Origin: Sedimentisphaerales bacterium
GTDB taxonomy: Bacteria > Planctomycetota > Phycisphaerae > Sedimentisphaerales > SM23-30
DNA: 64,000 bases
Assembly: GCA_963666285.1 (NCBI GenBank)
Contig: OY762711.1
Reading direction: 5' to 3' (one strand)
In this document: piece by piece, positions 34,005-63,400 of the stretch
How the letters are laid out: each line of letters begins with the position of its first letter
Position numbering within the stretch: position 1 is the first letter of the stretch
Program-made: the position numbers and the translations under genes
Notes under the pieces: model-generated
Told to the model about the DNA's origin: nothing
The model's input: the letters and a program-made list of their open reading frames with translations, nothing else
The model's database searches: none

Positions 34005-34022
34005 TTGTCAATATTTATGTTA

Positions 34023-34219
34023 ACTTTCGTAGTTTTTAAGTTGCACAAATCGCTCCAAAGGGCCTTACTGCAGCACTTTGAATTTTAGCCTGAAAACACA
34101 ATTAAATATAAAGACAACCTCTAAAGTTTTTCATTCACATGGCCCTGTTCCGGTCTTTGCGTGTAATGTAGAACGGTCAAAAGTGCGCCATGCATATAAT
34201 GCGAAGCAGAAACTGCACT
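34023..34219 (+). repeat. Dispersed ~200 bp element, copy 3
   Basis: ACTTTCGTAGTTTTTAAGTTGCA...GGCCCTGTTCCGGTCTTTGCGTGTAATGTAGAACGGTCAAAAGTGCG...AAACTGCAC. Confidence 0.9.
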
Positions 34220-34291
34220 TTATTGCAGTATTAAATTTTTTGTTTGATTTATAATTCTGTTAGATAATACAGTTTTAAAACAAGGAAAGTC

Positions 34292-38463: not shown

Positions 38464-38605
38464 GGTGTATTAGTTGTTTTTGAATAAATAATTATTGATA
38501 GAAAGGTGGTTTTGTATTGATTGTGCGGATTATAGGACTGAGACGCTATTTATACCGTTTTACACCGTTTATGGGTTGATTTGCATATATTTTTTTGTAA
38601 AATTA

Positions 38606-38621
38606 ACTTGTATAGACAAGT
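38606..38621 (+). promoter_or_regulatory. GntR-type operator palindrome
   Basis: ACTTGTATAGACAAGT, 45 bp upstream of the second GntR gene. Confidence 0.65.
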
Positions 38622-38665
38622 GATTCGTTATTAATGCCGATATCAGGAATATAAAGAGGTTTATT

Positions 38666-39790: not shown

Positions 39791-39805
39791 AATGGAGAAA
39801 ATAAT

Positions 39806-40648: not shown

Positions 40649-40725
40649 TGTAGTTTATAGTTTTGGAGATATAATTAATGTAAACATGTAGTTTGCATAA
40701 GAGTCAAATTTTTGGAGGTTTTATT

Positions 40726-42972: not shown

Positions 42973-42996
42973 TATTTAGTTAGTGTTTAAATGCGG

Positions 42997-43028
42997 GTAG
43001 GGCGGAGGCCTGGTGTCTTCGCCCTATT
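42997..43028 (+). terminator. Intra-operon stem-loop
   Basis: TAGGGCGGAGGC-loop-GTCTTCGCCCTA; weak U-tract. Confidence 0.55.
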
Positions 43029-43057
43029 ACTTCCGTATAAAACTTTAAAAAGAAGTT

Positions 43058-44929: not shown

Positions 44930-44943
44930 GGAATAGATAATTA

Positions 44944-46008
44944 ATGAACGATTTTATGAATATGTCTTTTGGAATGGGTTCTTTACCGTTACTTTCAAAT
45001 GCAAAAACACGTTCTATTTCGGCAGAAAATCCGACAGGTATGCCGGGTAATGGGGCAAAGGCTGTCCCGGGCGAGAATTCACCTGCCGGCTGGCTTGGTA
45101 AAGGATGGAAGGTTAGACCTTGTGTAGAGGTTAAAGCCGGTGAAATCTTTACGATGGCTGAAATAGAAGGTCCTGGGGTAATTCAGCACATCTGGCTTAC
45201 TACGGCAGTGAAATTTCATAGAGACATAGTAATTAGAATATACTGGGATAACGAAGAAAGTCCATCTGTGGAGTGTCCGCTAGGTGATTTTTTTGCTGTT
45301 GGTCATAGTGTTGTGTATAATGTAAATTCTCTGCCTGTTTGTGTTAATCCGACAGGTGGTTTTAATTGCTATTGGCCGATGCCTTTTCGCAAGTCGTGTC
45401 GGATAACAATTGAAAATCAACATTATGAAAATATACCGATGTTTTTTTACCAGGTTACTTATTCTTTAACTGATATTCCGGATAATGCTGCATATTTTCA
45501 TGCACAATGGCGCAGGACACGTACCACCGATTATGCCTGTCCGGAACACGTAATTGTTGATCAGGTAAAAGGCAAAGGGCAATATGTCGGAACATTTCTA
45601 GCATGGGTGCAGATGTCCGATCGCTGGTGGGGCGAAGGTGAAGTGAAGTTTTATATGGATGGTGATGGCGAGTATCCGACTATCTGTGGAACCGGAACTG
45701 AAGATTATTTCGGTGGTGCCTGGAGTTTTAAAGATACGTATTCGACCGCTTTTCTTGGATATCCTTATTGGAACAAAAAAGAAGCTTCGGTGCCAAAGCA
45801 TTCGATGTATCGCTGGCATATACCAGACCCGATCAGATTTGAAAATGAATTGAAGGTTTCTGTCCAGGCCCTTGGATGGTACCCGGGAGAAGAGAGATAT
45901 TATGAACCGCTGACTGATGATATTGCTTCGGTCGCTTATTGGTATCAGGCTGAACCTCATACTAAATTCCCTGAATTACTTGAAGCTAAGGATCGTTGGA
46001 CTCGATAA
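44944..46008 (+). CDS. DUF2961 / GH172 glycoside hydrolase (no signal peptide)
   Basis: RSISAENPTG, GPGVIQHIW, NCYWPMPF, WWGEGEVKFY, GTGTEDYF, YRWHIPDP. Confidence 0.9.
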   Translation: MNDFMNMSFGMGSLPLLSNAKTRSISAENPTGMPGNGAKAVPGENSPAGWLGKGWKVRPCVEVKAGEIFTMAEIEGPGVIQHIWLTTAVKFHRDIVIRIYWDNEESPSVECPLGDFFAVGHSVVYNVNSLPVCVNPTGGFNCYWPMPFRKSCRITIENQHYENIPMFFYQVTYSLTDIPDNAAYFHAQWRRTRTTDYACPEHVIVDQVKGKGQYVGTFLAWVQMSDRWWGEGEVKFYMDGDGEYPTICGTGTEDYFGGAWSFKDTYSTAFLGYPYWNKKEASVPKHSMYRWHIPDPIRFENELKVSVQALGWYPGEERYYEPLTDDIASVAYWYQAEPHTKFPELLEAKDRWTR

Positions 46009-46061
46009 TGTTTATAAAAGCCATATTTTGGTTATAACTAATATTTTAATAAGGATCAATA

Positions 46062-46991
46062 ATGAGTTTACGTGGTTTAATTGCGGCACCATTTACACCG
46101 ATGAAAAAAGATGGTTCAATAAATCTGGATATAATTCCGCAGTATGCAGAGTTATTAAAAGCTAATGGTGTTAGTGGAGGGTTTGTATGTGGGACAACCG
46201 GAGAAGGTATGTCCATGATAATGGAAGAAAGGATGCAGGTTGCCGAAGAGTGGTCAAAAGCCGACAGTTCCGATTTTAAGGTGATTGTCCATATTGGCTC
46301 TACAAGTATTGAAGAGAGTCGTATGTTAATGTCACATGCTGACAGGATTGGTGCTTCTGCTGTCGGTATGATGGGGCCGGGATACCTGAAACCGGATAGT
46401 GTTGATGCCCTGGTCAGCTACTGCAAAGGAGTAGCAAACGCAGCACCTGAAATGCCGTTCTATTATTATCATATGCCATCAATAACAGGGATAGGTTTTA
46501 GTATGCTGTCCTTCCTTGAAAAAGCATCTGATGAAATACCAAATCTTGCAGGTATAAAATATACTTTTGAAGATCTGATGGATTTTCATTTATGCCAAAA
46601 ATTTGATAACGGCAGGTATGATATATTATTTGGTCGTGATGAGATTCTGTTATGCAGTTTGGTTTTAGGAGCAAAGGGTGCTGTTGGCAGTACTTACAAT
46701 TTTGCGGCACCATTATATACCAGGTTGATCTCTGACTTTGAAGCTGGCGATCTCGAATCTGCCAGAACTTTACAGGGTGACGCTATGGAGGTTATAAAGG
46801 CCATAATGTCTGTATCGCCAACATATCTTCCTGCGGCAAAGTCATTAATGAAATATTTTGGAGTAGACTGCGGACCGGTTCGTTTGCCGCTAACCAATAT
46901 TAATGATATGCAATACCGTTCTTTAGTGGACAATAAAATCCTAAAGAAATTATTGGATAGCATGAAAGACTATTCATGTTTAGAAAAATAG
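46062..46991 (+). CDS. nanA: N-acetylneuraminate lyase-like aldolase (DHDPS family)
   Basis: GTTGEG, YYHMP, GIKYT (Schiff-base Lys), FGRDE, GAVGSTYN; sialidase context. Confidence 0.85.
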   Translation: MSLRGLIAAPFTPMKKDGSINLDIIPQYAELLKANGVSGGFVCGTTGEGMSMIMEERMQVAEEWSKADSSDFKVIVHIGSTSIEESRMLMSHADRIGASAVGMMGPGYLKPDSVDALVSYCKGVANAAPEMPFYYYHMPSITGIGFSMLSFLEKASDEIPNLAGIKYTFEDLMDFHLCQKFDNGRYDILFGRDEILLCSLVLGAKGAVGSTYNFAAPLYTRLISDFEAGDLESARTLQGDAMEVIKAIMSVSPTYLPAAKSLMKYFGVDCGPVRLPLTNINDMQYRSLVDNKILKKLLDSMKDYSCLEK

Positions 46992-47197
46992 AAAAACTAG
47001 TAAGCATTTACAGGTTTCAGATTTGCGATAAAACCTGTGTTTGCGAAGCTTTAAAATAGGTCGCCTATGGCGGCACCATAGCTTATTTATGCTACGCATT
47101 ACATACGTGGCTTCTTATTCATTACTGTAACCGTGAGAACGGTTACAAAAACTAATATTTATGGTAAATAAGGCTTTTTACCGAAAGGGTTTGCATT

Positions 47198-48385
47198 ATG
47201 AAAATAGAACGGTTTCAGTATAGTCGTATGTGTGTTATCGTAATAGCACAATTCCTGCTATTTACAGTTTGTTCTGGTATGTTATATGCAGATCAGCCAG
47301 GTGTATTTAATGGTCTGTATATGAATATGGGCAATCTGCCCAGGTTGTCCGATGCTAAATCCAGGTCTATCAGTCCAGAGAATTTTACAGGAGAAAAGGG
47401 CAAAGGAGCAATGGCTGTTGAGGGAACAGCATCCAAAGCCGCCCGTGATTTGGGTTTGGGTTGGAAGGTAAATCCATATATAAATATTAAATCGGGAGAA
47501 ACATTTAATTTGGCTCAAATCGAAGGTCCCGGCTCTATTCAGCATATCTGGATGACACCTACTGGTAATTGGCGATTTAGTATAATTCGTATATACTGGG
47601 ATGGAGAAGAAACACCTTCGGTTGAGTGTCCCATCGGTGATTTCTTTGCTTCCGGTTGGGGAAAATTTTCTCAGGTTTCATCCTTAGCGGTTTGTGTTAA
47701 TCCAGGTAGTGCATTTAATTGCTATTGGACAATGCCGTTTCGCAAGTCATGTACAATTACTATGACAAATATTGCAGATAAATCTATGCGGTTATTTTAT
47801 CAGATAGATTATACCTTAACCGATGTTCCTGAAGATGCTGCGTATTTTCATGCTCAATTTCGCAGGGTTAATCCGCTGCCGTATAAGGAAGTTTTTACTA
47901 TTGTTGATGATATTCGCGGCAAGGGACATTTCGTAGGCACTTATATGAGTTGGGGGGCAAATAGTTCAGGTTGGTGGGGTGAAGGTGAAATTAAGTTCTA
48001 TATGGATGGAGATAAGGAATTTCCAACTATATGTGGAACAGGAACTGAAGACTATTTTTGCGGTTCTTATGGCTTTAAAGTGAATACTGGTTCAGGTAAA
48101 AAGTATACTGAATTTTCTACTCCATATGCCGGAATGCCGCAAGTAATTTTGCCTGATGGCCAAACTCAATCTCAGACAAGATTCGGTCTTTACCGCTGGC
48201 ATATTACGGATCCTGTAAGGTTTGAGAGTGATCTTAAAATAACTATGCAGGCTTTAGGGTGGAGAGATGGTAAGAGGTATCTGCCTCTTCAGGATGATAT
48301 TTCATCTGTAGCATTCTGGTATCAGGCTGAGCCTCATAATCCGTTCCCAAAATTACCTGATAAAGATAGCCTGGAAATTAATTAG
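47198..48385 (+). CDS. DUF2961 / GH172 glycoside hydrolase (signal peptide)
   Basis: RSISPENFTGEKG, WWGEGEIKFY, GTGTEDYF, YRWHITDP. Confidence 0.9.
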   Translation: MKIERFQYSRMCVIVIAQFLLFTVCSGMLYADQPGVFNGLYMNMGNLPRLSDAKSRSISPENFTGEKGKGAMAVEGTASKAARDLGLGWKVNPYINIKSGETFNLAQIEGPGSIQHIWMTPTGNWRFSIIRIYWDGEETPSVECPIGDFFASGWGKFSQVSSLAVCVNPGSAFNCYWTMPFRKSCTITMTNIADKSMRLFYQIDYTLTDVPEDAAYFHAQFRRVNPLPYKEVFTIVDDIRGKGHFVGTYMSWGANSSGWWGEGEIKFYMDGDKEFPTICGTGTEDYFCGSYGFKVNTGSGKKYTEFSTPYAGMPQVILPDGQTQSQTRFGLYRWHITDPVRFESDLKITMQALGWRDGKRYLPLQDDISSVAFWYQAEPHNPFPKLPDKDSLEIN

Positions 48386-48442
48386 TCTGTTTTACTATTT
48401 CTTAGTTTTAATGTTTTTGATCAGATTTTATGTGTAATAATT

Positions 48443-50395
48443 ATGAATAAACTTCAGCCTGTTTATATTAAAAATGTTTCCATTAAAGATAGTTTCTGGT
48501 CTGGCAGGCTGGATATCAATCAGGACGTTACAATTCCTTATCAATATCAGATGTGCAGAAAAACAGGCCGGATAGATGCATTCAAGCTTGACTGGAATGG
48601 AACTGCCGCAAAAAAAACTCATATTTTCTGGGATTCTGATGTTGGGAAATGGCTGGAGGCTGTTGCTTATGTGTTAGCCTGTAAATCAGATAACCTATTA
48701 GAAAAAAAAGCTGATGCAGTAATAGATATTATTGCGGCAGCACAGCAGACAGACGGTTATCTTAATACATATTTTACTTCGGTGGAGCCGGAAAATCGAT
48801 GGACAAATTTGAGAGATAACCATGAGTTATATTGTGCAGGTCATTTGATCGAGGCAGCAGTTGCTTATTTTGAGAATACAGGCAAGGAAAAATTTTTGAA
48901 AGTTATATGCCGTTATGCCGATTATATTTGCTCTGTATTTGGTCCAGAAAAAGGCAAATTGAAAGGTTATGCCGGGCATCCGGAAATTGAATTGGCTCTG
49001 GTGAAGTTGTATAGAGTTTCAGGCTGCAAAAAGTATTTAAGCCTTGCAGTTTATTTTATCGAGCAGCGTGGCAATAAACCGGTATGGTTTGAAAAGGAAA
49101 TAGAGGCAGTACAAGATTTCACAGGTACTATCAGTGATAAGCATTATACTGCTGATTATAGTTATAATCAGGCTCATTTACCCGTTCGTTTGCAGAAAAC
49201 AGCAGAAGGTCATGCTGTTCGTGCCTGCTATTTATATTCAGCTATTGCTGATATAGCATATGAAACAGAAGATAAATCTCTTTTAACAGTATGTACAAAT
49301 ATCTGGAATGATATTGTTTCCAATAAGGTGTATGTAACCGGCGGTATTGGTTCTACTGATTATTCAGAGCGTTTTACTATTGATGGTGATTTGCCAAATT
49401 ATGAAGCTTTCAGCGAGACCTGTGCTTCAATTGCATTAGTCTTTTTTTCGCAGCGAATGTTCTACCTTACCATGGATTCCAGATATGCAGATCTTATTGA
49501 AAGGGCTCTTTATAATACAATTTGCGGTAGTGTCGGGATAGATGGAAAGTCTTTCTTTTATGCAAATGCTTTAGAGGAATGGCCTGAAAAACGTAAATAC
49601 CAGTTAAAATACCAAGGTAAAAAATATTCGCATTCTGTTCGGCAGCAGTGGTATGATACTTCCTGTTGTCCTCCTAATATAGCGCGTCTGTTTGCTTCTT
49701 TAGGAAGTTATATATACTCTAATTCCCCTTATATGTTGTTTGTAAATTTATACATATCGTCAAAAGTGACTATTAAGGTTGACGGACAGGACGTAACCTT
49801 GAACCTGAAAACAAAATATCCATATGATGGCAGGGTTTCCGTTAAAGTGGAGGTTGCTGTACCTTTAAATCATACGATTGCGTTAAGGATACCAGGTTGG
49901 TGCTCCAGGGCAGAACTAAAGATAAATGGCAGGAAAATTTCGCTGAGCAAAATTGTAAAAAAGGGTTATGTTATATTAAAAAGAATGTGGGTAAATTATG
50001 ACCATATTGAATTGAATATGGATATGCCTGTTGTATTGGTGACAGCTCATCCGAAGGTAGTTCAGGCTGCAGGCAAAGCTGCAATTCAGAAAGGTCCACT
50101 TATTTATTGTCTTGAAGGTATTGATAATAGCCGGTTTCTAAATGATATTGTTATACCGGAAGGAGTTGTATTTAAAGTGGTAAAAGGTAAAATCATATCT
50201 CAAAAAACTCAATTTATCCATTTTAATGCGTATAAAAGACTATATAGTAGTGGTTCTTTGTATAGTACCTGTGATGTAAAACTGAAAAAAGTCAAGGTAA
50301 AAGCCATACCATATTATTTAAGAGCCAATCGTAGTGATTCAGAAATGCTCGTCTGGATCAATGATGGTAGAACTAAGTATAATACTAAATTGTAA
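48443..50395 (+). CDS. GH127 (beta-L-arabinofuranosidase-like) glycoside hydrolase
   Basis: FWDSDVGKWLEA, HELYCAGH, GHPEIELAL, GHAVR, ETCAS, CCPPN. Confidence 0.92.
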   Translation: MNKLQPVYIKNVSIKDSFWSGRLDINQDVTIPYQYQMCRKTGRIDAFKLDWNGTAAKKTHIFWDSDVGKWLEAVAYVLACKSDNLLEKKADAVIDIIAAAQQTDGYLNTYFTSVEPENRWTNLRDNHELYCAGHLIEAAVAYFENTGKEKFLKVICRYADYICSVFGPEKGKLKGYAGHPEIELALVKLYRVSGCKKYLSLAVYFIEQRGNKPVWFEKEIEAVQDFTGTISDKHYTADYSYNQAHLPVRLQKTAEGHAVRACYLYSAIADIAYETEDKSLLTVCTNIWNDIVSNKVYVTGGIGSTDYSERFTIDGDLPNYEAFSETCASIALVFFSQRMFYLTMDSRYADLIERALYNTICGSVGIDGKSFFYANALEEWPEKRKYQLKYQGKKYSHSVRQQWYDTSCCPPNIARLFASLGSYIYSNSPYMLFVNLYISSKVTIKVDGQDVTLNLKTKYPYDGRVSVKVEVAVPLNHTIALRIPGWCSRAELKINGRKISLSKIVKKGYVILKRMWVNYDHIELNMDMPVVLVTAHPKVVQAAGKAAIQKGPLIYCLEGIDNSRFLNDIVIPEGVVFKVVKGKIISQKTQFIHFNAYKRLYSSGSLYSTCDVKLKKVKVKAIPYYLRANRSDSEMLVWINDGRTKYNTKL

Positions 50396-50653
50396 GTTAT
50401 ATTAAAATTGTGAAGTTTTGAGAAGAAGGTTGGAATATTGTTTTGATTTTTTGGGGATATCCAACGCGTAATATTTAAGGATTGTATCTAGCAGTTTGCG
50501 GAAGAGGAACGTTCGGCATGTCTGATGGTGCGATTAATAGTAGATAATTGTAAGTGCATAAAATGATTTTCCGGCATGCCCTGGAAGAGGCGAATGGAGA
50601 ATCAATGCGGACCTGTATCTTTCAACCGTTACCCATGTCCTGATCGAACCGGT

Positions 50654-50699
50654 TTAAAACTCTCACTTCTCGCTTCTTTCTTCTTACTCTTCTCATCCT
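50654..50699 (-). repeat. Purine-rich repeat, second copy (no intron)
   Basis: Reverse complement AGGATGAGAAGAGTAAGAAGAAAGAAGCGAGAAGTGAGAGTTT matches 14208-14250 with 2 mismatches. Confidence 0.85.
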
Positions 50700-50700
50700 T

Positions 50701-50914
50701 CAGGTGCCGTTTCACGGCACCTGTCTGGTCCGCCCAAAACCCAAAAATAACAACTTACGTAAATATCCGCAAAATCCCCTCCCCACCCGCACACTTCTCC
50801 AAACCCTCCTCGCACTCATTCTTATATCCCCGCACCCTTCAATTCCATTCCGTTTTTTAACCTCTCCTTCACCCATGGGAACGCTGAGCTGAATGAGATC
50901 CGCCTCAGGCGGAG
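50701..50914. repeat. REP-like palindromes in a C-rich patch
   Basis: CAGGTGCCGT-TTC-ACGGCACCTG (50701-50723) and TCCGCC-TCA-GGCGGA near 50899-50913. Confidence 0.55.
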
Positions 50915-50923
50915 CTTGGTACA

Positions 50924-51166
50924 TTATTTAAACAGGTCGCGTAGCGACACCTTTTTGACAATGAACAATACTGATTTCCAGTTATCCCAGATGCGGGATA
51001 ACCATACCCAGAATAGACGATCTGTATTTTTTATTTTAGGGCGTTTGACACTTCGCTGTAATATTATTATTTGCTGACGAAGAGCAATATTTTCAAGGAT
51101 TAGAGTTTGTTTACTTCTTACGGTAAGAAATAGTATTGTGTAAATTATTTTGTATAGTATTTTCAA
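50924..51166 (-). pseudogene. N-terminal fragment of an rve (integrase-core) transposase
   Basis: LILENIALRQQIIILQR...DRLFWVWLSRIW...IVK, truncated before the catalytic domain. Confidence 0.72.
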
Positions 51167-51338
51167 GTTGTATTCTCAATGTGGCAGCATTAAAATTGTA
51201 TTTTGTTGTTAAAATGATGATTTTACATTTCTGTTACAACTTGAGACATTGTATCATATTATGCCATATAATGTCAGTATATATTGTTTTATATAAGTGT
51301 TTGATAAACATTGCATTAGAGATAGAGTTTTAAGTCAT

Positions 51339-53105
51339 ATGCCTTCAAATAATAAAAATACCAAAGCAGGAATTAAAAAATTAACAGATGTACAATCCTT
51401 TGAGCGAGGGGAAGATTATTATGCTCGTGGCCTTGTGAAATCACTTATCATTGACGATGATGAGATAGTAGCAAAAGTGAGTGGGACTGCTAAATATAAG
51501 GTCGTACTGAAATTATCTGAAAAAGATATCGAAGCTGACTGTAATTGCCCAATGGGTAATGGCGGGTATTTTTGCAAACATTGTGTTGCAACTGCTCTTG
51601 CGTATATTTATGGTCAGACCATTGAGATGAAAACTAATAAAAAAGCAAAGAAAAAAGCTAAGACAACTCAAATTACTGTGAGTGATATCAGGAAATATTT
51701 CAACCGCAAAGAAAAGAAAGAACTGGTTGATTTGTTAATTGAGCAAGTAAAGGATAATGACCGTTTTAAAAGTAAGCTGACATTAGAATTGGCAATGGAA
51801 AGTGAAGATGAGGTAGCAGTAGCTACTCTGTATAAGATGGTTGACAAAGTATGTGATTCTTATGAAGATTATGATATTGAATTTGGATATAACTATCAGG
51901 ATACGGTTGATTGTGGGGATCAGGCTGATGAAGTAGTTAACGCTATAGAAAATCTGCTTAAAAAAGGATTGTGTATTGAGGTAATGGATTTAGCGGAATA
52001 TACTATTGAAAAGTTTGAGGCTGTCATAGCATTTACAAATGATTATGATAGCGGTTTGTATGATTGCATTGAAGATATTGCTGAGATGCATTTCGAGGCG
52101 TGTAAAAATGCTAAACTTGATTCAAAGGAGTTAGCTGAAAGACTATTTCGATTAAGCCTTCAGGAAGGTGATAGCTTTTATGGAGTGTATAAAACGTATT
52201 CGCCGACTCTTGGAGAAAAAGGAAAACAATTCTTTCGAGAATTATTATTGGAACAATACAACAGGCTGCCTTCGCTGGGAAAAGGGAAAAAACAACCATA
52301 CAATCATACTCGTAATCTAATTATCTCAATGATGGAAGATATTGCAAAGGAAAATGGCGATCTTGAGATGCTTGTTGAGATTAAAAGTAAAAACCTGGTA
52401 GATTCACGGGATTATTTGAGAATCGCTGAGTTATATAAAGAGTATAAACAGCGGGATAAAGCTTTGGAATGGGCAGAGAAGGCTGTAAAAGTTTTTGGGA
52501 AGAAAGAGCGTTACGGACAATTAGCTGAATTTCTTGCATCTGAATATAGTTTTAAGAAACAGAATGATAAAGCCATGGAAATTGTCTGGCAGGAATTTGT
52601 ACGGAATGTTGATTTAGGTTCATATAAGGACTTGAAAAAATATGCGGATAAGTGTAAGCAATGGAAAGTCTGGAAAGAAAGAGCGATAAGTTATATTGAA
52701 GAGGAAATAGCGAAGCAAAAGCAACAGAGAAAAGGCCAATGGGGTTATTCAAGGAATTCTGATCATTCAATATTGGTACAAATATATTTGTGGGAAAAGG
52801 CTCCGCAAAAAGCCTGGTCTGAAGCGAAGGCCGGTGGGTGTTCAACTGATTTATGGCTAAAACTTGCAAAACACAGAGAACAGAAATATCCAGAAGATTC
52901 TGTGCAGATTTATCAAAAGGCAGTTGAAATGTTTGTGGGGCAAACTAATAATGATGCTTATAAAGAAGCAGTTAGTTACGTCAAAATTATTAAAAAACTG
53001 ATGGCGGCAATGAAACAAAAAGACTCTTTTGACCAGTATATTGCTCAACTTAAGACTACTCATAAACGCAAGCGTAATTTTATCAAATTGATTGAAAAGT
53101 ATTGA
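51339..53105 (+). CDS. SWIM zinc-finger protein with helical/TPR-like C-terminus
   Basis: SFERGEDYY, CNCP...FCKHCVA, C-terminal HKRKRNFI. Confidence 0.88.
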   Translation: MPSNNKNTKAGIKKLTDVQSFERGEDYYARGLVKSLIIDDDEIVAKVSGTAKYKVVLKLSEKDIEADCNCPMGNGGYFCKHCVATALAYIYGQTIEMKTNKKAKKKAKTTQITVSDIRKYFNRKEKKELVDLLIEQVKDNDRFKSKLTLELAMESEDEVAVATLYKMVDKVCDSYEDYDIEFGYNYQDTVDCGDQADEVVNAIENLLKKGLCIEVMDLAEYTIEKFEAVIAFTNDYDSGLYDCIEDIAEMHFEACKNAKLDSKELAERLFRLSLQEGDSFYGVYKTYSPTLGEKGKQFFRELLLEQYNRLPSLGKGKKQPYNHTRNLIISMMEDIAKENGDLEMLVEIKSKNLVDSRDYLRIAELYKEYKQRDKALEWAEKAVKVFGKKERYGQLAEFLASEYSFKKQNDKAMEIVWQEFVRNVDLGSYKDLKKYADKCKQWKVWKERAISYIEEEIAKQKQQRKGQWGYSRNSDHSILVQIYLWEKAPQKAWSEAKAGGCSTDLWLKLAKHREQKYPEDSVQIYQKAVEMFVGQTNNDAYKEAVSYVKIIKKLMAAMKQKDSFDQYIAQLKTTHKRKRNFIKLIEKY

Positions 53106-53159
53106 AAATACACAGTAGTCTATAAACAAATTGCACTGTATGGCTTTGTGTCAATTATA

Positions 53160-53375
53160 TCAATCATCTTCCATGAGCTCCCATAGTTCATTTTGGTGCA
53201 AGAATATAGGATCGGCATTTTCTCGAATATAATCATCGATGGGCACACCATCGATAGTTGGCGACTTTTTGATGCGTTTTTGTTTGCCGTTTATGAAAAT
53301 AGTTTCATACTGCTGACTTTTGGCTTTACGGGCTGCTTTTTCTTTTGCGGTTAATTTACGTTTCTTTTTTGGCAT
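53160..53375 (-). CDS. Small basic hypothetical protein
   Basis: MPKKKRKL...FINGKQKRI...DPIFLHQNELWE, directly downstream of the AbiEii frame. Confidence 0.65.
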   Translation of the reverse strand: MPKKKRKLTAKEKAARKAKSQQYETIFINGKQKRIKKSPTIDGVPIDDYIRENADPIFLHQNELWELMEDD

Positions 53376-53380
53376 GAATA

Positions 53381-54346
53381 TTACTGCCTGTTTTTGTGTT
53401 GTTGGACATTGACCGCTTTCCATTGCAGTAGTGGATGGGCAGCTATTCGCTCGATCATGCCAGTGTCTCTAGTTAATAGTTCCGGTTTAATTTCACCATT
53501 GTCCAGAATTTCGTCAAGAAAATCGATTTCGTTTTCTCGAAGTGGCAAAATAATATCCATGGATTTTTTACATTCCAGAATCATTTTCTCTGCCCAGCCG
53601 GCAGACATTTCAGCTTCAATAAACTGCTTGCGAACCACTGGTAGAAGCAGGTTTTCCAATTCGAGTTTATCAAAACCAATATCATTGACACTTATGGTTC
53701 GCTAGTCTTTGCGGTTCATTGCACCGTATAACACAAAACCAAAGCGAAGCTTTTCGTAGTCAAGTTTGATTTTTGTCAGCAAATGGTGTGCATCAAACAA
53801 ATCACGGCTGGTATGGCGGGAGAGCAGGGCAGCTAGTTTTCCGGCGGCTAGTTCGTGAATGTCAAGTACGGGAATCTGCTTGGCCGAGTAGCTGCCGACT
53901 GTTGCGTCCATTTTTATGACCGGCCAAAGAGGGACGCGAAACATGAAGTTTAAATCCACTTCAAGGTTACTACCTTCCCCGATGGAACTTTCATAGCGTA
54001 GTCGCCATTTTCCGCCAGCGTGGTCGTCCGGTGTGCGTACAATATTCAATCCTTCCCGTGAACAAACTGCTTGAATGGCCAGTTCAACTTTTGGACGCTC
54101 ATCCATCATAGTCTGGCGATCTGCCGCGCCAATATAGTTCAGATCTATATCTACCGACAGTCGGGGCAGGTCAAACAGAAACAGATTCAATGCTGTTCCG
54201 CCTTTGAGTACCATCCTGCTTTTTAGAAAAGGATGGCGGTTGAATCCGTCAAGCAGATTCAGGAGTTGGATTACTTTTTCCAGAACTTCCGGGCGAAATC
54301 CGGTCTCATGTGCTTCAGCAAGTAGCCGTTTGTGTGAAATTTTCAT
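53381..54346 (-). pseudogene. abiEii: AbiEii-family nucleotidyltransferase toxin with one in-frame stop
   Basis: LKGGTALNL...RLSVDIDL and KLAALLSR...RDLFD; TAG at 53704-53702, after which the same frame continues to 53381. Confidence 0.88.
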
Positions 54347-55134
54347 ATTACAGTTTCCCATGACCGATCGGCAAGCCACTGTGGTATGACTATATTCCAA
54401 TCTCGGATTACGCTACCACTGCCTCCACGTTCCAGATAAAATGCCTGTTTGGGACGAAGTTTGCTAAGCTCGGCCAGGTGTGAATCATCAACCATCAATT
54501 CTTTCTTATGCTGCTGAAGGTAGAAACCGACCTTAGCAGCTGTCGTTTTCTTACCGAGTATATGTACATATTCTATTATGGTATCCAGATCGAAGTATTC
54601 TACCGATTCAAGCGAGCGATATATTTCCTCCCAACCGCCGCCAAGGTTTGGGCGGTCAAGCAGGTCAACCAGTGTTCGTTCGAGTGTGGTTACTCGTATA
54701 TTCAGCCCATTACGCTCTACTGTTGTGGTGGCAAAATAGGGCTGGTTTGCTTCAACCAATGCTTTGGATGTGGATGTGCATTCATAGCGACAGCTATCCA
54801 ATTCAAACGGGTGAAACGCCCGGACACTGCCATAGGTGTATTTCTGGAAGGTAGAGTAAGCTTTGCCGAAAAGCTCAAGAGCTGTGTGAAATGATAGATA
54901 AGCATCATTTGCCAGTTTGGAAGCCAGCTGGTAAGGATCGGCTTGGAAATGTTCTGGTGCGATCCCATCTGGCACAACGGCGTATATACCTTTACGGATA
55001 AGGTGGAGTCGTCCCTGTTTGCAGTATTGTGCCAATGAGCTTTTCCGTGTCCACGGACTTGTGTCTTTTTTGTATTCATCAAACTCATCGCGTCTGAATA
55101 CGGGATTGTTCGCAAAGAAGTTTTTTATGTTCAT
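54343..55134 (-). CDS. abiEi: AbiEi-family antitoxin / transcriptional regulator
   Basis: IRKGIY, YLSFHTALE, VTTLERTLVD...GGWEE; its stop overlaps the toxin start (ATGA). Confidence 0.9.
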   Translation of the reverse strand: MNIKNFFANNPVFRRDEFDEYKKDTSPWTRKSSLAQYCKQGRLHLIRKGIYAVVPDGIAPEHFQADPYQLASKLANDAYLSFHTALELFGKAYSTFQKYTYGSVRAFHPFELDSCRYECTSTSKALVEANQPYFATTTVERNGLNIRVTTLERTLVDLLDRPNLGGGWEEIYRSLESVEYFDLDTIIEYVHILGKKTTAAKVGFYLQQHKKELMVDDSHLAELSKLRPKQAFYLERGGSGSVIRDWNIVIPQWLADRSWETVI

Positions 55135-55146
55135 CGCAGTAACTCC

Positions 55147-55279
55147 GTTTACAATTTAGTCATATAAGGTTACTGAATATAGCCTTTTGTGAGAATTATG
55201 TCAATCATTATAAGTGTAGTTTACAATTCTGTCGATTAGGGTGTGTTTATGTAGCCTTTATAGATGGAATTGTAAACTA
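55147..55279 (-). promoter_or_regulatory. Repeats upstream of abiEi (probable autoregulatory sites)
   Basis: GTTTACAATT at 55147 and 55219; inverted GAATTGTAAACTA at 55267-55279. Confidence 0.6.
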
Positions 55280-56494
55280 GTGTTTTGTCAATTTATAAAT
55301 TTGGGATAGAGTGTTTTTAGTTTAGTTCTGGCATTTTCAACCGTGAATTGCCAATCTACGTCTCTTTGGTTTTGGTTGCATGAAGTTGCCCAAGCATGAG
55401 TTTCTTCTATAAGTGAATCTATATCAGCAATTAGTCTGCCAGTTATACATTGTCTGGTTAGTGAACTTAGTTCACATTCAGCGATATTTAACCAACTGCC
55501 ATGTTTCGGGGTATAATGAAACTCCAATCGTTCAATCAAAGCTCTGGCTTCCTTTGGAGCAAACACTTCATAAAAGGCTCCTTTTGTATGAGTATTAAAA
55601 TTGTCACAAACTAAAATAACTTTTTCTGCTTCACTATAAATCTTTTTACTTCTAATGCCCAGTCTGCTTTTGTACGGCAGGGCAAAGCACTTACATTACG
55701 CCAGGCAGCTAAGGGTTCAGCAAACATAAATATACATGCCGTTCCTGCTCGCTCATATTCATAATCTACCCTGCGAGGATGATTTATTCTTGCAGGTATA
55801 GTCTTCCTGGTTTCCTTGAGCAACTGAACCGGCTGTTCATCCATACATAATACCGGATATGCAGGATTGTATGATCGAGAATATATTTCGAGTACATCTT
55901 CCATGCATGCCACAAATTCGGCATTAGATTCAGGAGGAATAACCCAATATTGGATTTTTTGTTTGGTCATTCCATTTTTTTTAAGGTAGTGCGAATAGTC
56001 TCGTGACTTATTGAATCCACTATTTCTAATTCCACTACTTTTTCTGCCAACAAACGCAAAGTCCAGTGAGCATAACCTTTAGGTGGATCACTTAAACGCA
56101 AAGCTATAATCTCTGCTTCTTGTTTGCCGTCTAAAACCTTGGCTCTCGGTGGTTTAGCTTGTGGCTTACGATTCAGACAAGCCTCGAAACCTTCAGTTAC
56201 AAACTTCTGTCTGACATTCTCCACTGTCTGAGTTCTACACATAAAAGCTTCCGCTATCTGCAGGTCTTTCCAGTTTGGACCGTTAACGTCAGCTTTTAAT
56301 AAAATATTAGCTCTACGGACTTTTTGGGAAGAACCACTGAGTTTTTTTACTATCGAAAAAAGTATATCTCGTTCTTCATCCGTAAGACAAACTATGTACT
56401 TCTTTTCCATGATAAATTCTCCATAATATGGTTAATAGTATAGAAAATTTATCGGATTATTACTATCCTAAACTATAATTTTGACTAAACGCTA
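55278..56494 (-). mobile_element. Degenerate IS630-family element
   Basis: Ends CTAGTGTTTTGTCAA and reverse complement CTAGCGTTTAGTCAA with CTAG/TA at both sides; orfA 55967-56410 (HTH, HWTLRLLA) ends at an A8 slippery run; orfB is split into 55611-55970 (CMDE, YEYERAG) and 55288-55566 (YTPKHGSWLNIAE). Confidence 0.88.
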
Positions 56495-56495
56495 G

Positions 56496-56701
56496 TATGT
56501 TTTCGGCAGCAAACAATGCGAAGATAGCATTTATTGTACTATTTGATAATTCAGGCCAAACCTCTATTACCTGATTAAGCTCAGGATATTTTTGACATAT
56601 TTCAGCATAAGGTAGCGTATTTTCTGCAGAACTGATGTCGGAACTAGTTTGAGGGCTATTATAAGTGCTTGTTAGTAAAGTGTTTGCGTTGTATATTGTT
56701 T
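56496..56701 (-). pseudogene. Start-less reading frame running out of the att fragment (possible integrase C-terminal tail)
   Basis: Open frame ...ICQKYPELNQVIEVWPELSNSTINAIFALF..., continuous with the antisense frame of the tRNA fragment. Confidence 0.5.
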
Positions 56702-56757
56702 GGTCTTGAAAACCGTTGAGGGTAACACCTCCGGGGTTTCGAATCCCTCTCTCTCCG
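56702..56757 (+). other. 3' half of tRNA-Ser(TGA): probable att-site duplication
   Basis: GGTCTTGAAAACCG anticodon arm, long variable arm GAGG-GTAACA-CCTC, TTCGAATCCC T-loop, acceptor 3' strand CTCTCCG; no D-arm or 5' acceptor strand upstream. Confidence 0.85.
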
Positions 56758-57250
56758 TTATTATAATTCCTTATTGCTTAATTGGTTATAAGAAATTGTT
56801 TTAAATATACGATACTTTATTTCTATAAACATATCGTTTTTAGCTCAAAAATGCGTCCTATAACCGATGTAATTTCTACTTAATCGCTTGTGAAACTTAA
56901 GCTTATGGAAAAATATTTGTTTGTAGGCGTAAATTGGTAACCTATCATTCTATATTTCATTTTAGTTAGAATAAAGCCTATGGTGAAACGAATTGTCATG
57001 CCTTATGCATTTTGATGGTACAAGGAATTTGGTTTTTTAATATCGCTTTATAGTAGCTATGCTGAATTGGTTTATATGGGGATAGGGCTGTCTTATTTTC
57101 AATAATCTGTTACAGGAACATACAGATCAACCGTAAAATCTTCAATTGACCGTTGATCTTTGCCTAGGATATCTACTACTTGTAGCTGCCCGGCAGGAAT
57201 TCTCCTATGTTTCATAATTATATGTACTATTAATTGGATACTAATACTTT

Positions 57251-58090
57251 TCATGGTTGCCAGCCCAGATTTCCCCACGTAGCACGCTGGAAATACTTTA
57301 GGTCTTCGCTGGGCATGTCAACTTGCGGCATTTTGTATGCTCCATCAGCGACGGCATATGCTTCTTTAATTGCCTTGTAAGTTTCCATTGAAAATTTATA
57401 AGGATCAACATGACCGTCAGCAAAACCGTTTAAGGCAGACTGGCTGTGTTTGTAACTGGGGATATTCCACCATTGCGATTTACCATACCAGAGAGCAAAG
57501 TAAGCATCTTTGTTTTTGCCAATACCATCTACAAATAAAAATCTTTCTGACGGCCTTTTTATACTGTCAATTTTGTTGAAGACCTTTCCAGTTGTTGAGG
57601 TGTCATAATTAACTGACTTGTCAGATTGGGTGAATTTGCTTTGCCATTGAGCGGCCATGCCGTAGCTTCTAACCTGTAATTTATCAGGGTCAGCAGGGCA
57701 GCGCCAGCAGTCTGTGCTTTCAATGTATTTCCAGAGCTGTCCTTTAACCAGTCCGGTGTATGTGTCAGTTGAATTTCCGTAATTTTGCACTTGCGGATCC
57801 AGGGTGTTTTCTCCGTTAGCGTCATAAGTGTAGCCGCACCAACCCGGCTTGGTGACAGATCCATCTACCCAGGTGTTAGATGCATAAGGCGTATTTCCCT
57901 GGTTGTCGCCGCAATAATAGATAGTTGCCATTGCCAGGCTGCGTAAATTTGAGGAGCAAACAGTTTTTTTTGCCTGATCTCTGGCTTTATTTAGTGCAGG
58001 CATCAGGATTGATACCAGTAGTGCAATAATAGAAATAACAACCAGTAATTCGATCAGTGTAAAAGCCTTTGATTTAAATGTACATTTCAT
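57251..58090 (-). CDS. Prepilin-type N-methylation protein (DUF1559-like)
   Basis: AFTLIELLVVISIIALLVSILMPAL; WRCPAD; HSQSALNGFADGHV (H-x9-DG). Confidence 0.9.
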   Translation of the reverse strand: MKCTFKSKAFTLIELLVVISIIALLVSILMPALNKARDQAKKTVCSSNLRSLAMATIYYCGDNQGNTPYASNTWVDGSVTKPGWCGYTYDANGENTLDPQVQNYGNSTDTYTGLVKGQLWKYIESTDCWRCPADPDKLQVRSYGMAAQWQSKFTQSDKSVNYDTSTTGKVFNKIDSIKRPSERFLFVDGIGKNKDAYFALWYGKSQWWNIPSYKHSQSALNGFADGHVDPYKFSMETYKAIKEAYAVADGAYKMPQVDMPSEDLKYFQRATWGNLGWQP

Positions 58091-58188
58091 GTTTAGTCTC
58101 CTTTTTCATACTATTTTAGAATGAATGTTTATAATTATGTTAATTATTAAATTTTCTGTATTATCAGTTATTACATAATGAATACTGC

Positions 58189-60444
58189 TTACTCTAATGT
58201 GCCGCAGGAAATTTGTAGAGGATCAAGGGTGAATTCAATATTTGCATTGATATAACCCAGAGTAGTCTCATCCTTAAAAGTCAGTTTTTTCCCTTTATTG
58301 TTTTTCCAGACGCATGTTATAGGGGAGCGAGTGGTGTTAACAGCGGAAGCGATTATTTTGCCTTCTACCTTTGTGTATCTATAGAATATGCCTTTAACTG
58401 GTTTATTAGTTTCTGAATCGATCAGTTGATATTCGCCATAGGTTCCAATTGATTTAAGAGCAGTTTTTATTTTATCTGGAAAAATGTTGCTTTCGTATTG
58501 GTCCAGATTTAGGGCGGTTACTGCGGTGTCGTTAAATATATTGTGTTTCCTTGACTGAGCGTATTCATTAAACTTAGCAACATCATTGCCAATCAGGATA
58601 GCAGCGGCAGTATTTGAATGGAATCCCATTTTAAGGAAATAGTCAATTCCGTCTAATGCTTTATCGGTTACGTGGGTCGTACCTGGTAAAATAATAACTT
58701 TTACAGAAGGGAGTTTTCTTGAGAATTCGTCAGTTTCCAACATTTGTTCAGGGATAATTGCATAGTTAATGCCAAGTTCGTTAAAAGCTGCTACACAACT
58801 GGTGAATGCCGCCATTGAGTCCTGGTTTCTCAATAATGAGGCTCTTGAGTATAGTATGCCTACTTCCGGCTTAGCTTCAGCCAATGAAGCAATATAGGGC
58901 ATAAGTCTCATAGCGTCAAGACCTGTTCGTACGTATTCTTCAGTTTGAAGAGGGCGATATTTGAATAATCCTTTGAAAATGTTATTATCGACATTGTCCC
59001 TTCTTTCCCAGGACCATGCCGTAGAACCATGTTGTCCTGTTAATAATTGCAGCCACATGCCGGCTCTAACATGCCCCGGAAGGACATCGTTATTGTCTCT
59101 ATCTCTCAAAAGATGATTTTCTGTGTTGACGACAGGCAGCATTCTAGCTGACCTGAGCATAATATTATGTAATGTGACTTGAGTGGCATCAATGGCGTAA
59201 TTTGATTCTGAATTAACTTTTGCAGGTGATGCACCACCGTCCATGCCATTCATGTCAAAATACTGGCTAAGATAGTAATGGTCGATTCCCTGTATGAGAT
59301 CAAATTGCTTTAGTGATCTGTCAATAGCCTTCATGTGAGTAGGCTTTTCCTGGATGCCATTTTCTTTTAGAGCCAGTTTGGTAGTATCGCTTAATCCGAC
59401 CAGCCATTTAGAGAAAGTCTGGTCGTTAAATCTCATCCAGTCGAAAAGTACGGGCTCCTGAGGAAATGGAGTCCTGGGCGGCTGGAGATATGCAGGTACT
59501 TCAGACCAGTCAGCAAAAGTTGTGTTCCATTTTATATTGGCATTTTCGATAGTCTTAAATTTGTCTTTGAGATAATTTTCCCAGAGGCTACGAATTTCCG
59601 GTACTTGTGTCCAGATGAATGCTACTGGTTCATTAGCCATACACAAAGACCACAAACCAGGTTCATCTCCCATTTTTTCGACTATTGTGTTAATATGCCT
59701 GCTTAAAATATTATTCACTGTATTATTAAAGATGTTGACTCTTAAAAAACCTCCCAGGTGTGGATATAGTTTAGGGTATTTGCTTTTGGCCCAGTCTGGT
59801 GTGTAATGAGGAGAGATTAACAGATCAACCAGTACTCCGGATTTGTATGCTTTGGCCAAAAATGTTTTGTATTCATTGATGCGAGGTGTGTCAATTTCTG
59901 TTTCACTTTTGAGTGTACCTCTTGGACCTATTTCAGTTTGGGCAAAATTGGTTCCCAGTTTGCCGAGCCATTCTATTTCTTTTCGTAATTCATGGAAATG
60001 GCCAAAGCCAAAAAGATATACAGGTCTATCTTTTTCAACGGTTCCATCGCTCCAGATTACGTCCTGCTGAAAATGGCCGCCATTAATAACAGGGAGACAT
60101 TCCTTAATTCTATTTACAGTCTTTTGGTTTGATATATCGCCATTGATAATTAGGTTGAGTCGCTTTCTTTCATCATCAATGATTTTTCTGATATCTCTCT
60201 GGGAATATGAACCCAGGTCTGGATATTGTTTTATATCATTTGGTAGATATTGCAGAAATCTTTCTATAACCATTAATCTCATACTGCAGTATTGGTCTTT
60301 TTTGTTAATAGCTTCAGCTTTTGCTGCTAGTTGCTTTAAGCTTTCAAACTCACTTGCGAGTTTGGTTATACTATCTTCAGCAGCAATAACTGAGGTGGCT
60401 AAAAGCCATATAAGCATAGATGATATATACTTTGTAAGTTTCAT
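58189..60444 (-). CDS. Secreted GH42-like (beta-galactosidase-like) glycoside hydrolase
   Basis: Signal peptide; PHYTPDW; ANEP acid/base; N-xx-W-x-T; DWMRF; NTENH nucleophile region; trimerisation-like domain. Confidence 0.78.
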   Translation of the reverse strand: MKLTKYISSMLIWLLATSVIAAEDSITKLASEFESLKQLAAKAEAINKKDQYCSMRLMVIERFLQYLPNDIKQYPDLGSYSQRDIRKIIDDERKRLNLIINGDISNQKTVNRIKECLPVINGGHFQQDVIWSDGTVEKDRPVYLFGFGHFHELRKEIEWLGKLGTNFAQTEIGPRGTLKSETEIDTPRINEYKTFLAKAYKSGVLVDLLISPHYTPDWAKSKYPKLYPHLGGFLRVNIFNNTVNNILSRHINTIVEKMGDEPGLWSLCMANEPVAFIWTQVPEIRSLWENYLKDKFKTIENANIKWNTTFADWSEVPAYLQPPRTPFPQEPVLFDWMRFNDQTFSKWLVGLSDTTKLALKENGIQEKPTHMKAIDRSLKQFDLIQGIDHYYLSQYFDMNGMDGGASPAKVNSESNYAIDATQVTLHNIMLRSARMLPVVNTENHLLRDRDNNDVLPGHVRAGMWLQLLTGQHGSTAWSWERRDNVDNNIFKGLFKYRPLQTEEYVRTGLDAMRLMPYIASLAEAKPEVGILYSRASLLRNQDSMAAFTSCVAAFNELGINYAIIPEQMLETDEFSRKLPSVKVIILPGTTHVTDKALDGIDYFLKMGFHSNTAAAILIGNDVAKFNEYAQSRKHNIFNDTAVTALNLDQYESNIFPDKIKTALKSIGTYGEYQLIDSETNKPVKGIFYRYTKVEGKIIASAVNTTRSPITCVWKNNKGKKLTFKDETTLGYINANIEFTLDPLQISCGTLE

Positions 60445-60497
60445 AGGTACTCCTGTCACATTTAGTAAATTTTATTATATTCCTCAATGATTTCTAA

Positions 60498-63400
60498 TTA
60501 TCGGCATAGCCAGTAAGTGCTTAATATTCCAACGTCCTTGATGTCAATTATCTGGTCGTTATTGAAATCACCATTTTCCCATTCAGCATTATTGCTCAGC
60601 CAGTTTATGCTTAGGGTTGTTAGGTCTTCGTTGTTTATGCAGCCATCCATATTTGCATCACCTGGATCAACAAGATAGCCAAATGCAACTTCTAGAGGCT
60701 CAAGTTTTAGTAATGTGCTTGTTTCTTTAGGGTAGATGTTTAGGGTGTCAACAAAAACCTTTCTTTTTCCTTCATTGTCTTGTATGAAAAATGATTTTTG
60801 AGAATCAGATGTGTTTATTAATGTTACCAGATGTCTGGAATCTACTTTTCTGTTTGCATGGTGAATGTCAAAGGTGATTTCGTTACTTGCAGAATCTAAA
60901 AGCACTATGTCGGGGCCGCTTCCAATAGATAACATGGTTTGGTAAAGGCTGTTTTGTAAGGCAATTAAATCTGTATTTGCAAGGTTATAATAATCATTAT
61001 TATTAAATATGGTTGATCGTGTCTGGCAAAATTGATTGTAATATCCGATATTGCTGCCTATCCCAATCAGTTTAATAGAATTGCTGTTAGCAAAACTTAT
61101 CAGGCTGTTAAAAGTGTTGTCAGGGATATGGGTACAGCCGGGTAAGATCATGGTTTCAATATTTTTAATAATATTATATTCATTGTTGGCGAGTACCTGT
61201 TCTGTGATAACTGCAAGTGAGAATCCCAGTTCTTTTAACACGTCGTATGTGTTGAAAAGGATAGTGTCATAGTCTGGATTTCTTAATGCGGAAGTTTTTG
61301 AGTATAACAAGACAACTTTTTTGTTTTTTTCTCTTATTTGCACAAGTTCAGGCATAAGACGCATGAGATCCATGCCGGTTCTGGAGTATTCTTCCATCGC
61401 AAGGGGACGGTCGAGCCACATGCCGGTTTGGAAAGAGCTGTCAGTGTTATTGCCCCAGAGCCAGGCCGCCGAAGCGTCCAGGCCGGCAAGGGCCTGCAGC
61501 CAAAGGGCGGCTCTGGCATGGCCTGCAGCAACATCTTCATTGTTATTGTCACGAAGTATGTGGTTTTCTGAATTTATTACCGGCTTAGCAGTTATTGTTT
61601 TTTGAGTTACGACTGGTAATGTAGCACAGGCAGCAGAACCGAAAAGTGATATATCTTCGGTATTAACAGTATCCCATGGGGCAATACTACCATCCTGGCC
61701 GGCAATATCGGTTGTCCTGGGCATTAAGTCAATGTCACTTCCTTGTAAAACATGTTCCTGGGTATAATATCTGATAATCTGTTTGGTGTGGGTATAAATT
61801 GAATTATCGGCAGCTTTTACATGCCCTTGGAGCCAGTCTAGCCAGTTATTTACTCTATAATCATTGAATTTCATCCAGTCGTAAAGTTCCGGATCATCGG
61901 GGAAAGGAATTGAAGGTTGATGTTTGTACATTTTAACTGAATTCCAGTTTGAGTATGATGTTAACCATGCAGAATTCATTGCAGAAATAGTACCATATGT
62001 ATTTTTAAGATAATCAACCCACATGTCAGGGGTGGCATCATCGTCCCAGAACATAAATGCAGGTTCGTTGATCAGGCAGCAGGACCATATGCCTGGTTGT
62101 TCAGTTAATGCCTGTATAGTAAGTTGTGAAGTGTATCCAACTATTTTCTGAACTTCCGGGTGATTAAATTCATAATTGATAAATCCACCTAAAAGTGCGT
62201 AGTAATCAGGATATTTATCGATAAACCATGACTGAATCCAGTGTGGGCAAATATTTAGATCAGTGATAATTCCGGTATTATAGGCCTCGTTTATAGTGGA
62301 CATGTAATATGATATTACCCCAGAATCTAGAGAGCTTTCAAGTGGTGCTTCCGCGTTCCACATACTCTCATCTGGCATTGTATATCGTGGTCCGGTAAAT
62401 AAATGGATTAAGTTGGCTCCTAAGGCTTCACTTATAAATGACAAATCAGGCTGGATATCCTGTTGTTCTCCGCAGAAACCGTATAGGAATACAGGTCTGG
62501 TTTCTATAGTTCCGTTTGCCCATTGAACTTTTTGTTCCAGGTGAGAACCAATCATTTGCGGCATTTCGGTAGCGACACGTCGAGGTGAGTTTGTGCAGGC
62601 AATTTCATCTCTGGTGATAGCTTCCAGTCGTAAAATCTCATCGTCGATAATTTTATCCAGATATCTTGTTGCAAAAGCAGCTAATTCAGTTTTGCCATCT
62701 GATATCATTCTGCTTATAAGTGTTTGGAATTTTTGCGTTAGGCTGTTACGCATTATAGCGTAGGTATCTTGTTTTCCATATAAACTTGCTCTTGTATTAA
62801 GGTCATTCAGGAATCGACATTTGCGAGCCAGAGTTATATCTTTTTTCGGAATGTTTAGAAACATATCAGATGTAAGTGCTATTGAGGATATTTTAAGATT
62901 ATCTATGTCGCCAATGAAGTCACGCTCAGATTGCCATCCCGGTCCCTGGCCAATTACAAGGTCGTTTGCATGGTCTGTGTTGTCGTTATAATCGGATATA
63001 GCTCCTTGCCATTGTTTGTCTATATATAAGTCATATGTGTCGCTGTTGGCAGTGTGGGTGACGGCAACATGGTACCAATATCCATCGCTAATGTCTATAT
63101 TTGAAGTTATCTGTCGATTGGCAAGGGCGAAAGTAAGTTGACCGGTATAGTAATTCCAGTAAAACCCCCATCCTTTATTTGAACTATCAGCAGTTCCTTT
63201 GTGCATTATCCAGTTTAGTGGGCTTGAAGCGTAATTTTCATTATCGACTCTGATATAATATTCCAGAGTAAAATCTTCTCCATAGTCTAATGTGATGATA
63301 TCGGATTGTGGAATTGTTATGTAGTCGTCATCATCATCGGTAAATTGGATGTGCAGGTCGTTGCTGCTATCAGAACTGTATAGAGGGCCGTTATTGCTTA

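Follow-up and report, generated by a model that had tools for sequence, protein, structure and literature searches.

A conserved hairpin tail beside a tRNA-Ser fragment in a Sedimentisphaerales genome: a probable remnant of an integrative element whose integrase gene runs through attP

The window analysed here, a stretch of 64,000 nucleotides of contig OY762711.1 (Sedimentisphaerales bacterium, assembly GCA_963666285.1), contains a minus-strand reading frame that runs antisense through a piece of tRNA-Ser(TGA) into a conserved tail. This locus is very probably what remains of the attR side of a small integrative element that targeted a tRNA gene and in which the integrase gene would run through attP and exchange its C-terminal tail upon integration. 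The principle is known from the Myxococcus phage Mx8; the tail itself is undescribed and common in planctomycetes. At the level of the sequence, the layout, the reading phase and the two forms of the protein are established.

The preliminary description of the locus had reported a frame reading antisense through the tRNA-Ser core into the tail, and this frame was recovered with a length of 104 codons and no start before the conserved motif, its sole start codon (reading from 56777 to 56466) being a TTG at codon 87, 3' of the motif (Table 1). The linker that had been called Ser/Thr-rich is present as a frame, but largely represents translated att-arm DNA sites. The interruption of the tail by IS630, also noticed at that stage, was found as described: the insertion sequence enters the frame five codons past IFALF, so that the last codons and the stop of the frame are IS-derived. 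A contig from another organism matches exactly the span of this IS630 copy. A 12.9-kb contig of run X1 spans positions 50844-62000 without a difference and, since this run is probably the source sample, it argues against local misassembly only.

Table 1. Coordinates in the window of the features of the junction and of its surroundings
Feature	Position	Strand	Basis or remark
104-codon open frame lacking a usable start (in order, antisense tRNA, linker from the att arm, tail, codons from the IS element)	56466..56777	-	
3' part of tRNA-Ser(TGA), displaced att core, attR-type junction	56702..56758	+	BLAST against the intact gene, positions 31-85, 93%
Flank common with the locus of the intact tRNA-Ser gene, at a distance of 1.88 Mb	56759..56861	+	165-nt match at 90%, about 105 nt of it downstream flank
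Conserved helical-hairpin tail, putative C-terminus of the excised-form integrase	56496..56606	-	
YPEL motif of the tail	56577-56588	-	
WPEL motif of the tail	56547-56558	-	
A-rich ...ACTTA motif, fixed place in the att arm	56662..56674	-	
Direct-repeat pair with a 12-bp period, putative arm-type integrase sites	56627..56646	-	GAACT at 56629 and 56641
IS630-family element, CTAG at both ends, transposase in three pieces	55277-56495	-	NCBIfam NF033545 on three frames
AbiEii gene	53702-54400	-	PF08843
Gene upstream of the AbiEii gene	54343-55134	-	no family match

A search for the intact tRNA-Ser(TGA) gene, suggested with the preliminary description, located it at C1:c3539710-3539794, and BLAST extends the likeness of the two loci beyond the tRNA itself. 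The tRNA likeness at the fragment sets in exactly at 56702, and the crossover would lie in or near the anticodon arm. The variable arm of the fragment is 2 nt longer than that of the resident intact tRNA-Ser and as long as that of genomes G001-G003; consequently, the first 13 residues quoted for the frame are out of register with the resident tRNA, and the retention of the longer arm fits a displaced host half. The downstream flank includes an inverted repeat followed by T's, in the manner of a terminator, and is not common to G001-G003. An Rfam match over the tRNA fragment was discarded as a chance match to a plastid family. Separately, a decayed antisense tRNA-Lys fragment lies about 700 nt downstream of the intact tRNA-Ser (G000:C1:3538969-3539012), a further att relic.

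No PF00589 match was found near the window or near the intact tRNA-Ser, tblastn with the catalytic domains of the family returned nothing near the window, and a lone weak integrase match (E=0.018) lies outside the stretch, about 1.2 kb beyond its start, and roughly 20 kb from the intact tRNA. Because an integrase is absent near both tRNA-Ser copies, the tail is here an orphan, the attP of the local element is not rebuildable, and a fusion at this locus rests on homology with relatives; with the integrase end lost and the tail hit by IS630, the local piece is probably inert. Whether it is the relic of an element once present at this place is an even call, the other half of the expectation falling on an attR junction that came in from the genome of a relative or is a copy taken from the tRNA-Ser locus. 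The flank shared with the distant intact locus suggests the latter, as does the lack of both a partner att end and an integrase nearby, and genome G003, which retains the downstream neighbours of tRNA-Ser (here near 3.449 Mb), speaks against a large inversion; however, the two tRNA-Ser copies are on opposite replichores and both co-oriented with replication, an arrangement that an inversion about the terminus would equally produce, and the comparison rests on few genes in scrambled synteny. An inversion about the terminus as the origin of the orphan is not supported by the G003 neighbours, and import or copying would in any case leave the identity of the sequence unchanged.

Judging from position only, the AbiEii gene and its upstream neighbour (53702..55134, minus strand) are possibly cargo of the lost element. 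Upstream of this pair and adjoining the IS630 end, an inverted repeat with 25-nt arms (55217-55279) is a possible operator or terminator. Elsewhere in the window, 50610-50955 is a member of a non-coding, MITE- or REP-like repeat family that occurs dozens of times on the chromosome, and a cluster for the use of sialic acid or glycans (32838-50395) holds GntR regulators, a Kelch/epimerase-symporter fusion, BNR sialidases, a DHDPS-family lyase, DUF2961 and GH127.

The remark that similar tails occur beside tRNA att sites in planctomycetes was borne out on a broad scale. The window peptide matches in 8 of 41 related genomes, a tail profile built from 11 copies matches 164 of 301 genomes of the class (a count that takes in this genome and the unpublished G293), and a 97-row profile matches 52 of 201 genomes of the phylum. 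In GTDB, 433 of 526 pattern matches to the tail were confirmed and, among the best 80 of these 433, 78 bear planctomycete titles, the others being a Myxococcaceae bin and a bin titled Leptolyngbya. The tail was not found in the annotated phages (best E of at least 0.8) and plasmids searched, and a single-sequence protein search with the window peptide gave no match. The top match of the protein search with the tail, P0001, is a zinc-finger repeat artefact.

A tRNA half lies at most 260 nt upstream of the tail in 86 of 99 copies, with 2 matches in the downstream control stretch, and the same arrangement recurs in a second set (51/79). Specifically, these 86 junctions comprise 73 antisense 3' halves and 13 sense 5' halves (L099 and L132 exemplify the sense orientation), the best-matching tRNAs belong to 28 isotypes, and the distance from the tRNA half to the Trp codon of the tail has a median of 121 nt. 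The tails at which no tRNA half was detected (13/99 and 28/79 in the two sets) are in some cases parts of other proteins. Among individual loci, L102 (in genome G318) is an element targeting tmRNA, L094 has a 22-nt core at which ARAGORN called no tRNA, and in L006, L070 and L097 tails follow one another at 0.3-6 kb, as tandem integrations or stacked relics would give.

The owner of the tail was sought in 80 regions fetched around tail matches and picked for contig size or long open frames. Their 71 unique tails divide into 29 with a partner core and 42 without one in reach. In 20 of the 29 paired elements the far core is reached by an open frame 300 or more codons long, in all 20 this frame is in the phase of the tail, and all 20 frames contain PF00589 (E<=1.5e-5; 19 above the cut-off). 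The other nine have no 300-codon frame into the far core and are short-frame, tandem or decayed elements; one of the short-frame cases, L069, is an integrase end in phase with the tail. A replicate on 82 new loci yielded nine pairs, eight with an integrase, all eight in phase, and one without a long frame. Over the complete elements of both sets that have an integrase entering the far core, integrase and tail are therefore in frame in 28 of 28, for which chance would account with a probability of 4e-14 if the elements were independent and of 6e-7 if the 13 target types are counted, kin not being independent; the most alike pair among the 20 integrases has 73% identity. Since the elements fall in three phases relative to the tRNA T-loop and in both orientations, the match is no fixed property of the tRNA sequence. 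Of the two candidates named at the outset for the gene spanning attP, the integrase or a neighbouring gene, only the integrase stands.

The genome under study holds a case of its own: a 14.3-kb element at tRNA(CAT) (L275, G000:C1:2679635-2693980), flanked by 21-nt cores at 2679689-2679709 and 2693960-2693980, encodes an integrase that is interrupted by a single internal stop and shares its phase with a divergent tail. Its cargo includes a type I restriction-modification system, a YgjP-like peptidase and DUF4268. The GC-skew switch of the chromosome, in the terminus region at about 2.68-2.70 Mb of G000:C1, coincides with this element. Together with the 20 of 20 and the eight of eight in relatives, L275 provides the in-frame fusion across attP that had been anticipated.

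The core lies 64-207 residues past the catalytic Tyr region (about 65-130 in general, 207 once), and the PF00589 domain is wholly before it. As read from the frames, both arms of attP are inside the integrase gene. Past the core, the excised form has a median of 65 residues and the integrated form 14, the integrated form being the longer one in 2 of 20 elements; the expected removal of a C-terminal helical part upon integration is thus matched by the exchange of a segment that AlphaFold models as a hairpin. Fused proteins also occur naturally. Integrase-tail fusions are found at L047, L132 and L219, PF00589 is present in 18 of 18 long tail-bearing proteins (one close family), and four PF00589 proteins among 39 matches carry a fused tail, in line with the proposal that the tail would be found on tyrosine recombinases. 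Long and short versions of nearly the same enzyme are on record: P0187 (557 aa) is 95-96% identical to P0207 and P0210 (478 aa) within one 90% cluster and diverges from them at the core, and P0188 (599 aa) and P0213 (545 aa), again in one 90% cluster, also diverge at the core. Fused records on short contigs could represent excised circles, or assemblies in which the two att ends have collapsed, and are therefore no proof of excision or expression.

These observations suggest the following course of events. The tyrosine-integrase gene of this family, which points at the tRNA, continues past its catalytic domain through one arm, the tRNA-derived core, the second arm and the hairpin, and since it runs through both arms and the core, the whole attP is inside the gene. 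The free circle encodes the long form with the hairpin, integration replaces about 65 terminal residues by the short end read off the tRNA, and excision would bring them back. As the catalytic domain is kept, the swap presumably tunes the enzyme and does not kill it. Self-association of the hairpin may tether integrase subunits and aid the synapsis of attP with attB, so that the long form would integrate efficiently, while the short form would be weaker and the integrated state would be stabilised, as is reported for Mx8.

The arms have a regular structure of their own. A perfect 7-mer is repeated at a spacing of 12 between core and tail in 58 of 99 copies, against at most 8 at any other spacing, and in 13 of the 20 complete elements the element-specific repeat pair of the tail side is present again 150-225 nt ahead of the far core. 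Lambda-type attP is the model for reading such repeats as arm-type sites, and on this analogy the repeats with a 12-bp period are putative arm-type integrase sites. Moreover, AA....TTA peaks at W-105 (35 of 59 matches) and ACTTA at W-90; the ACTTA motif is a possible site of a DNA-bending host protein, and the consensus that we take to be IHF-like is met strictly in just 3-5 of 99 arms.

What is conserved in the tail is an amphipathic hairpin of about 28 residues, placed internally and modelled by AlphaFold as two helices (8-19 and 22-35, pLDDT 94). It has no Pfam, NCBIfam or significant PDB sequence match and no Foldseek match; the best VIA-align Z of 3.8 is below significance, in a list that includes several small dimerisation domains, and ESM Atlas matches are solely unnamed planctomycete clusters. 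A weak match to the N-terminus of PvuII (E=1.2 per copy) is not trusted. A hairpin of 28 residues can probably bury its conserved Leu, Ile and Trp only with the help of a partner, and its presence on two distant enzymes and on unrelated proteins favours self-association or a host partner over an integrase-specific surface. By this reasoning, self-association that tethers integrase subunits is the preferred function, at somewhat less than an even chance; the binding of a host or element protein is a more doubtful option, and an inhibitory or destabilising hairpin is less probable still, with further roles making up the remainder.

A destabilising role would make the tail a degradation tag or inhibitor, the free form being unstable or muted and the enzyme stabilised by integration. 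This reading accepts the layout and differs in function only, and the long low-complexity linker ahead of the terminal motif would suit a protease. It is nevertheless unlikely: the tails have no conserved C-terminal residues, and the hairpin lies 21-26 residues before the stop. An ssrA-like degron in particular was set aside, as the end A/L/V-Ala, which we take to be its pattern, occurs in 0 of 99 tails. A precedent for loss of a tag does exist in a mycobacteriophage repressor, which loses a C-terminal tag on integration according to the accessible text of PMC3694055.

Gene callers list thousands of short proteins with the tail (2,440 representatives at E<=0.001), and a start codon of some kind falls within W-120 to W-30 in 61 of 99 copies, for the most part where the arm repeats are. 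On these grounds the tail could be a small separate protein started in the att arm, such as an anti-repressor or a directionality peptide, its phase with the integrase being incidental. Such a protein is very unlikely, since the start is ATG in just 13 of 99 copies and follows an SD-like motif in 2 of 99, no start precedes the motif in the window copy, stop codons are avoided ahead of the candidate starts as well, and the integrase frame matches in 28 of 28.

Stops interrupt the tail frame in 5 of 99 unique copies and the other frames in 57-90 of 99, a count biased towards an open frame over the motif by the selection of the copies with a protein profile; the linker alone, which is less exposed to this bias, has stops in 5 of 99 in the tail frame and in 47-83 of 99 in the other five. 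Nucleotide identity over the three codon positions is 0.54/0.70/0.38, and six of six Leu codons are in use at the conserved L of the hairpin. To judge from this codon pattern, the tail is conserved as a protein. That a DNA site in the att arm is what is conserved, with the peptide as a by-product, is hardly credible: the linker is indeed site-like, with its 12-bp repeats and its ACTTA motif at fixed places, but third codon positions are the least conserved in the hairpin, all Leu codons are used, and stops are confined to other frames.

The integrases that own the tail are of more than one kind. Seven of the 20 form a supported clade (98/97) on a long branch, one of whose members, L111, has about 25% identity to the other group (best E=2e-4), and hairpin, arm repeats and spacing are common to these two distant groups. 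The elements measure 3.5-18.6 kb and target many tRNA isotypes and tmRNA. For a comparison with PICI-like phage satellites, which are small and combine an integrase with primase or helicase and AlpA or HTH_17 genes but no virion genes, 63 frames from 12 of the 20 elements were scanned: Prim-Pol, AAA_25, DUF3987, AlpA and HTH_17 occur in several, and no virion family was found. Many integrases akin to these do without the extension. Of the viral loci parsed, 16 of 39 end 56-72 residues past the HxLR motif and away from a contig end, without an extension, and the tail motif is present in just 3 of 57 viral loci.

The hairpin is found on other proteins too: behind primase and DnaB-N-like domains in L045 (3855-5522, minus strand), within a 380-aa protein of a viral contig in L139 (1919-3061), and in tandem repeats, four in P0065 and two in P0043; the predicted fold of the four natural repeats of P0065 has a pTM of 0.37 and no clear match. 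It is a tentative possibility, well short of an even chance, that the hairpin is a portable module placed behind the attP of at least two distant integrase groups, a directionality switch in the form of a handle, self-associating or binding a host factor, on a translated-attP tether, the handle being removed by integration, and reused on primase-like and other proteins. Two further sightings of the motif are on record: near position 6050 of L050 it lies in an unassigned, non-integrase frame, and at G000:C1:4843508-4845010 (L002, L011), as well as in G003 (L004), a degenerate arm and tail, marked by a stop codon and a 10-nt deletion, follows immediately on the stop of a tyrosine integrase of a third kind, which points away from tRNA-Val, and this tail has no tRNA half in front of it.

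The location of attP inside int in Mx8 was reportedly described by Tojo in 1996 and by Magrini in 1999. The preliminary description had invoked the SSV1-type split as precedent; the closest one is instead Mx8, in which the catalytic domain stays intact. In what is available of PMC4701971, PMC6070905 and PMC4383910, Mx8 is the precedent of an attP within an integrase gene, and the first of these gives 112 C-terminal residues as replaced by 13, with a less active short form. As far as these sources go, Mx8 (and also Mx9) shares with the planctomycete elements a tyrosine integrase, a tRNA target, an attP in the 3' part of int and a catalytic domain that is kept. The Mx8 record has a similar linker-then-tail layout, and the relatives have PF00589 in 20 of 20, the core after the catalytic domain in 28 of 28, and a long C-terminus swapped for a short one. 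The tails of the two systems have no similarity (hhalign probability 0.4%), and the Mx8 Int catalytic domain is only marginally like that of the planctomycete integrases (best E=0.004). The planctomycete enzyme thus appears to work like Mx8 Int while standing outside its family. Unlike Mx8, it belongs to small elements of Planctomycetota that use many tRNA isotypes and tmRNA in both orientations, with one tail for two integrase groups.

Other systems are more distant. The archaeal suicidal integrases of SSV1, pTN3 and pT26-2 have the att site in the integrase gene and a tRNA target; in them, by the part of PMC8371274 that was available, the gene is broken into an Int(N) part and a catalytic Int(C) part, whereas the planctomycete enzyme stays whole, with PF00589 entirely before the core. 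In BPs-type mycobacteriophages, a protein whose gene spans attP loses a C-terminal piece on integration; the accessible portion of PMC3694055 identifies the split gene as a repressor and the piece as a degradation tag, while the frame that enters the core here is an integrase with a folded hairpin and no tag-like end. The streptococcal rumA-targeting ICEs, in the excerpts of PMC4701971 at hand, have att inside a serine integrase gene whose C-terminus is exchanged by integration; they differ in the class of the enzyme and in the protein-gene target, and no such tail is described for them there. A literature search confined to main texts outside subscription retrieved no description of this tail, nor of this layout in planctomycetes, and neither is mentioned in the available parts of PMC12884075 and PMC13626063.

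Attachment sites inside the cognate integrase gene are called very rare in the accessible sections of PMC4701971, and self-disrupting integrases are treated as archaeal in those of PMC8371274. The present data make an Mx8-like layout common across a bacterial class and tie it to one unannotated domain of 28 residues and to two distant enzyme groups. They provide many natural pairs of long and short forms for testing the control of recombination direction by a C-terminal swap, and explain thousands of "hypothetical proteins" beside tRNA fragments as products of gene callers from orphaned tails, and they make the tail a marker of att junctions in Planctomycetota. Integrases cloned from the integrated state would be without their native end and, if the reading of the hairpin as a portable module is true, those mined from planctomycete genomes would systematically be the weaker, truncated form.
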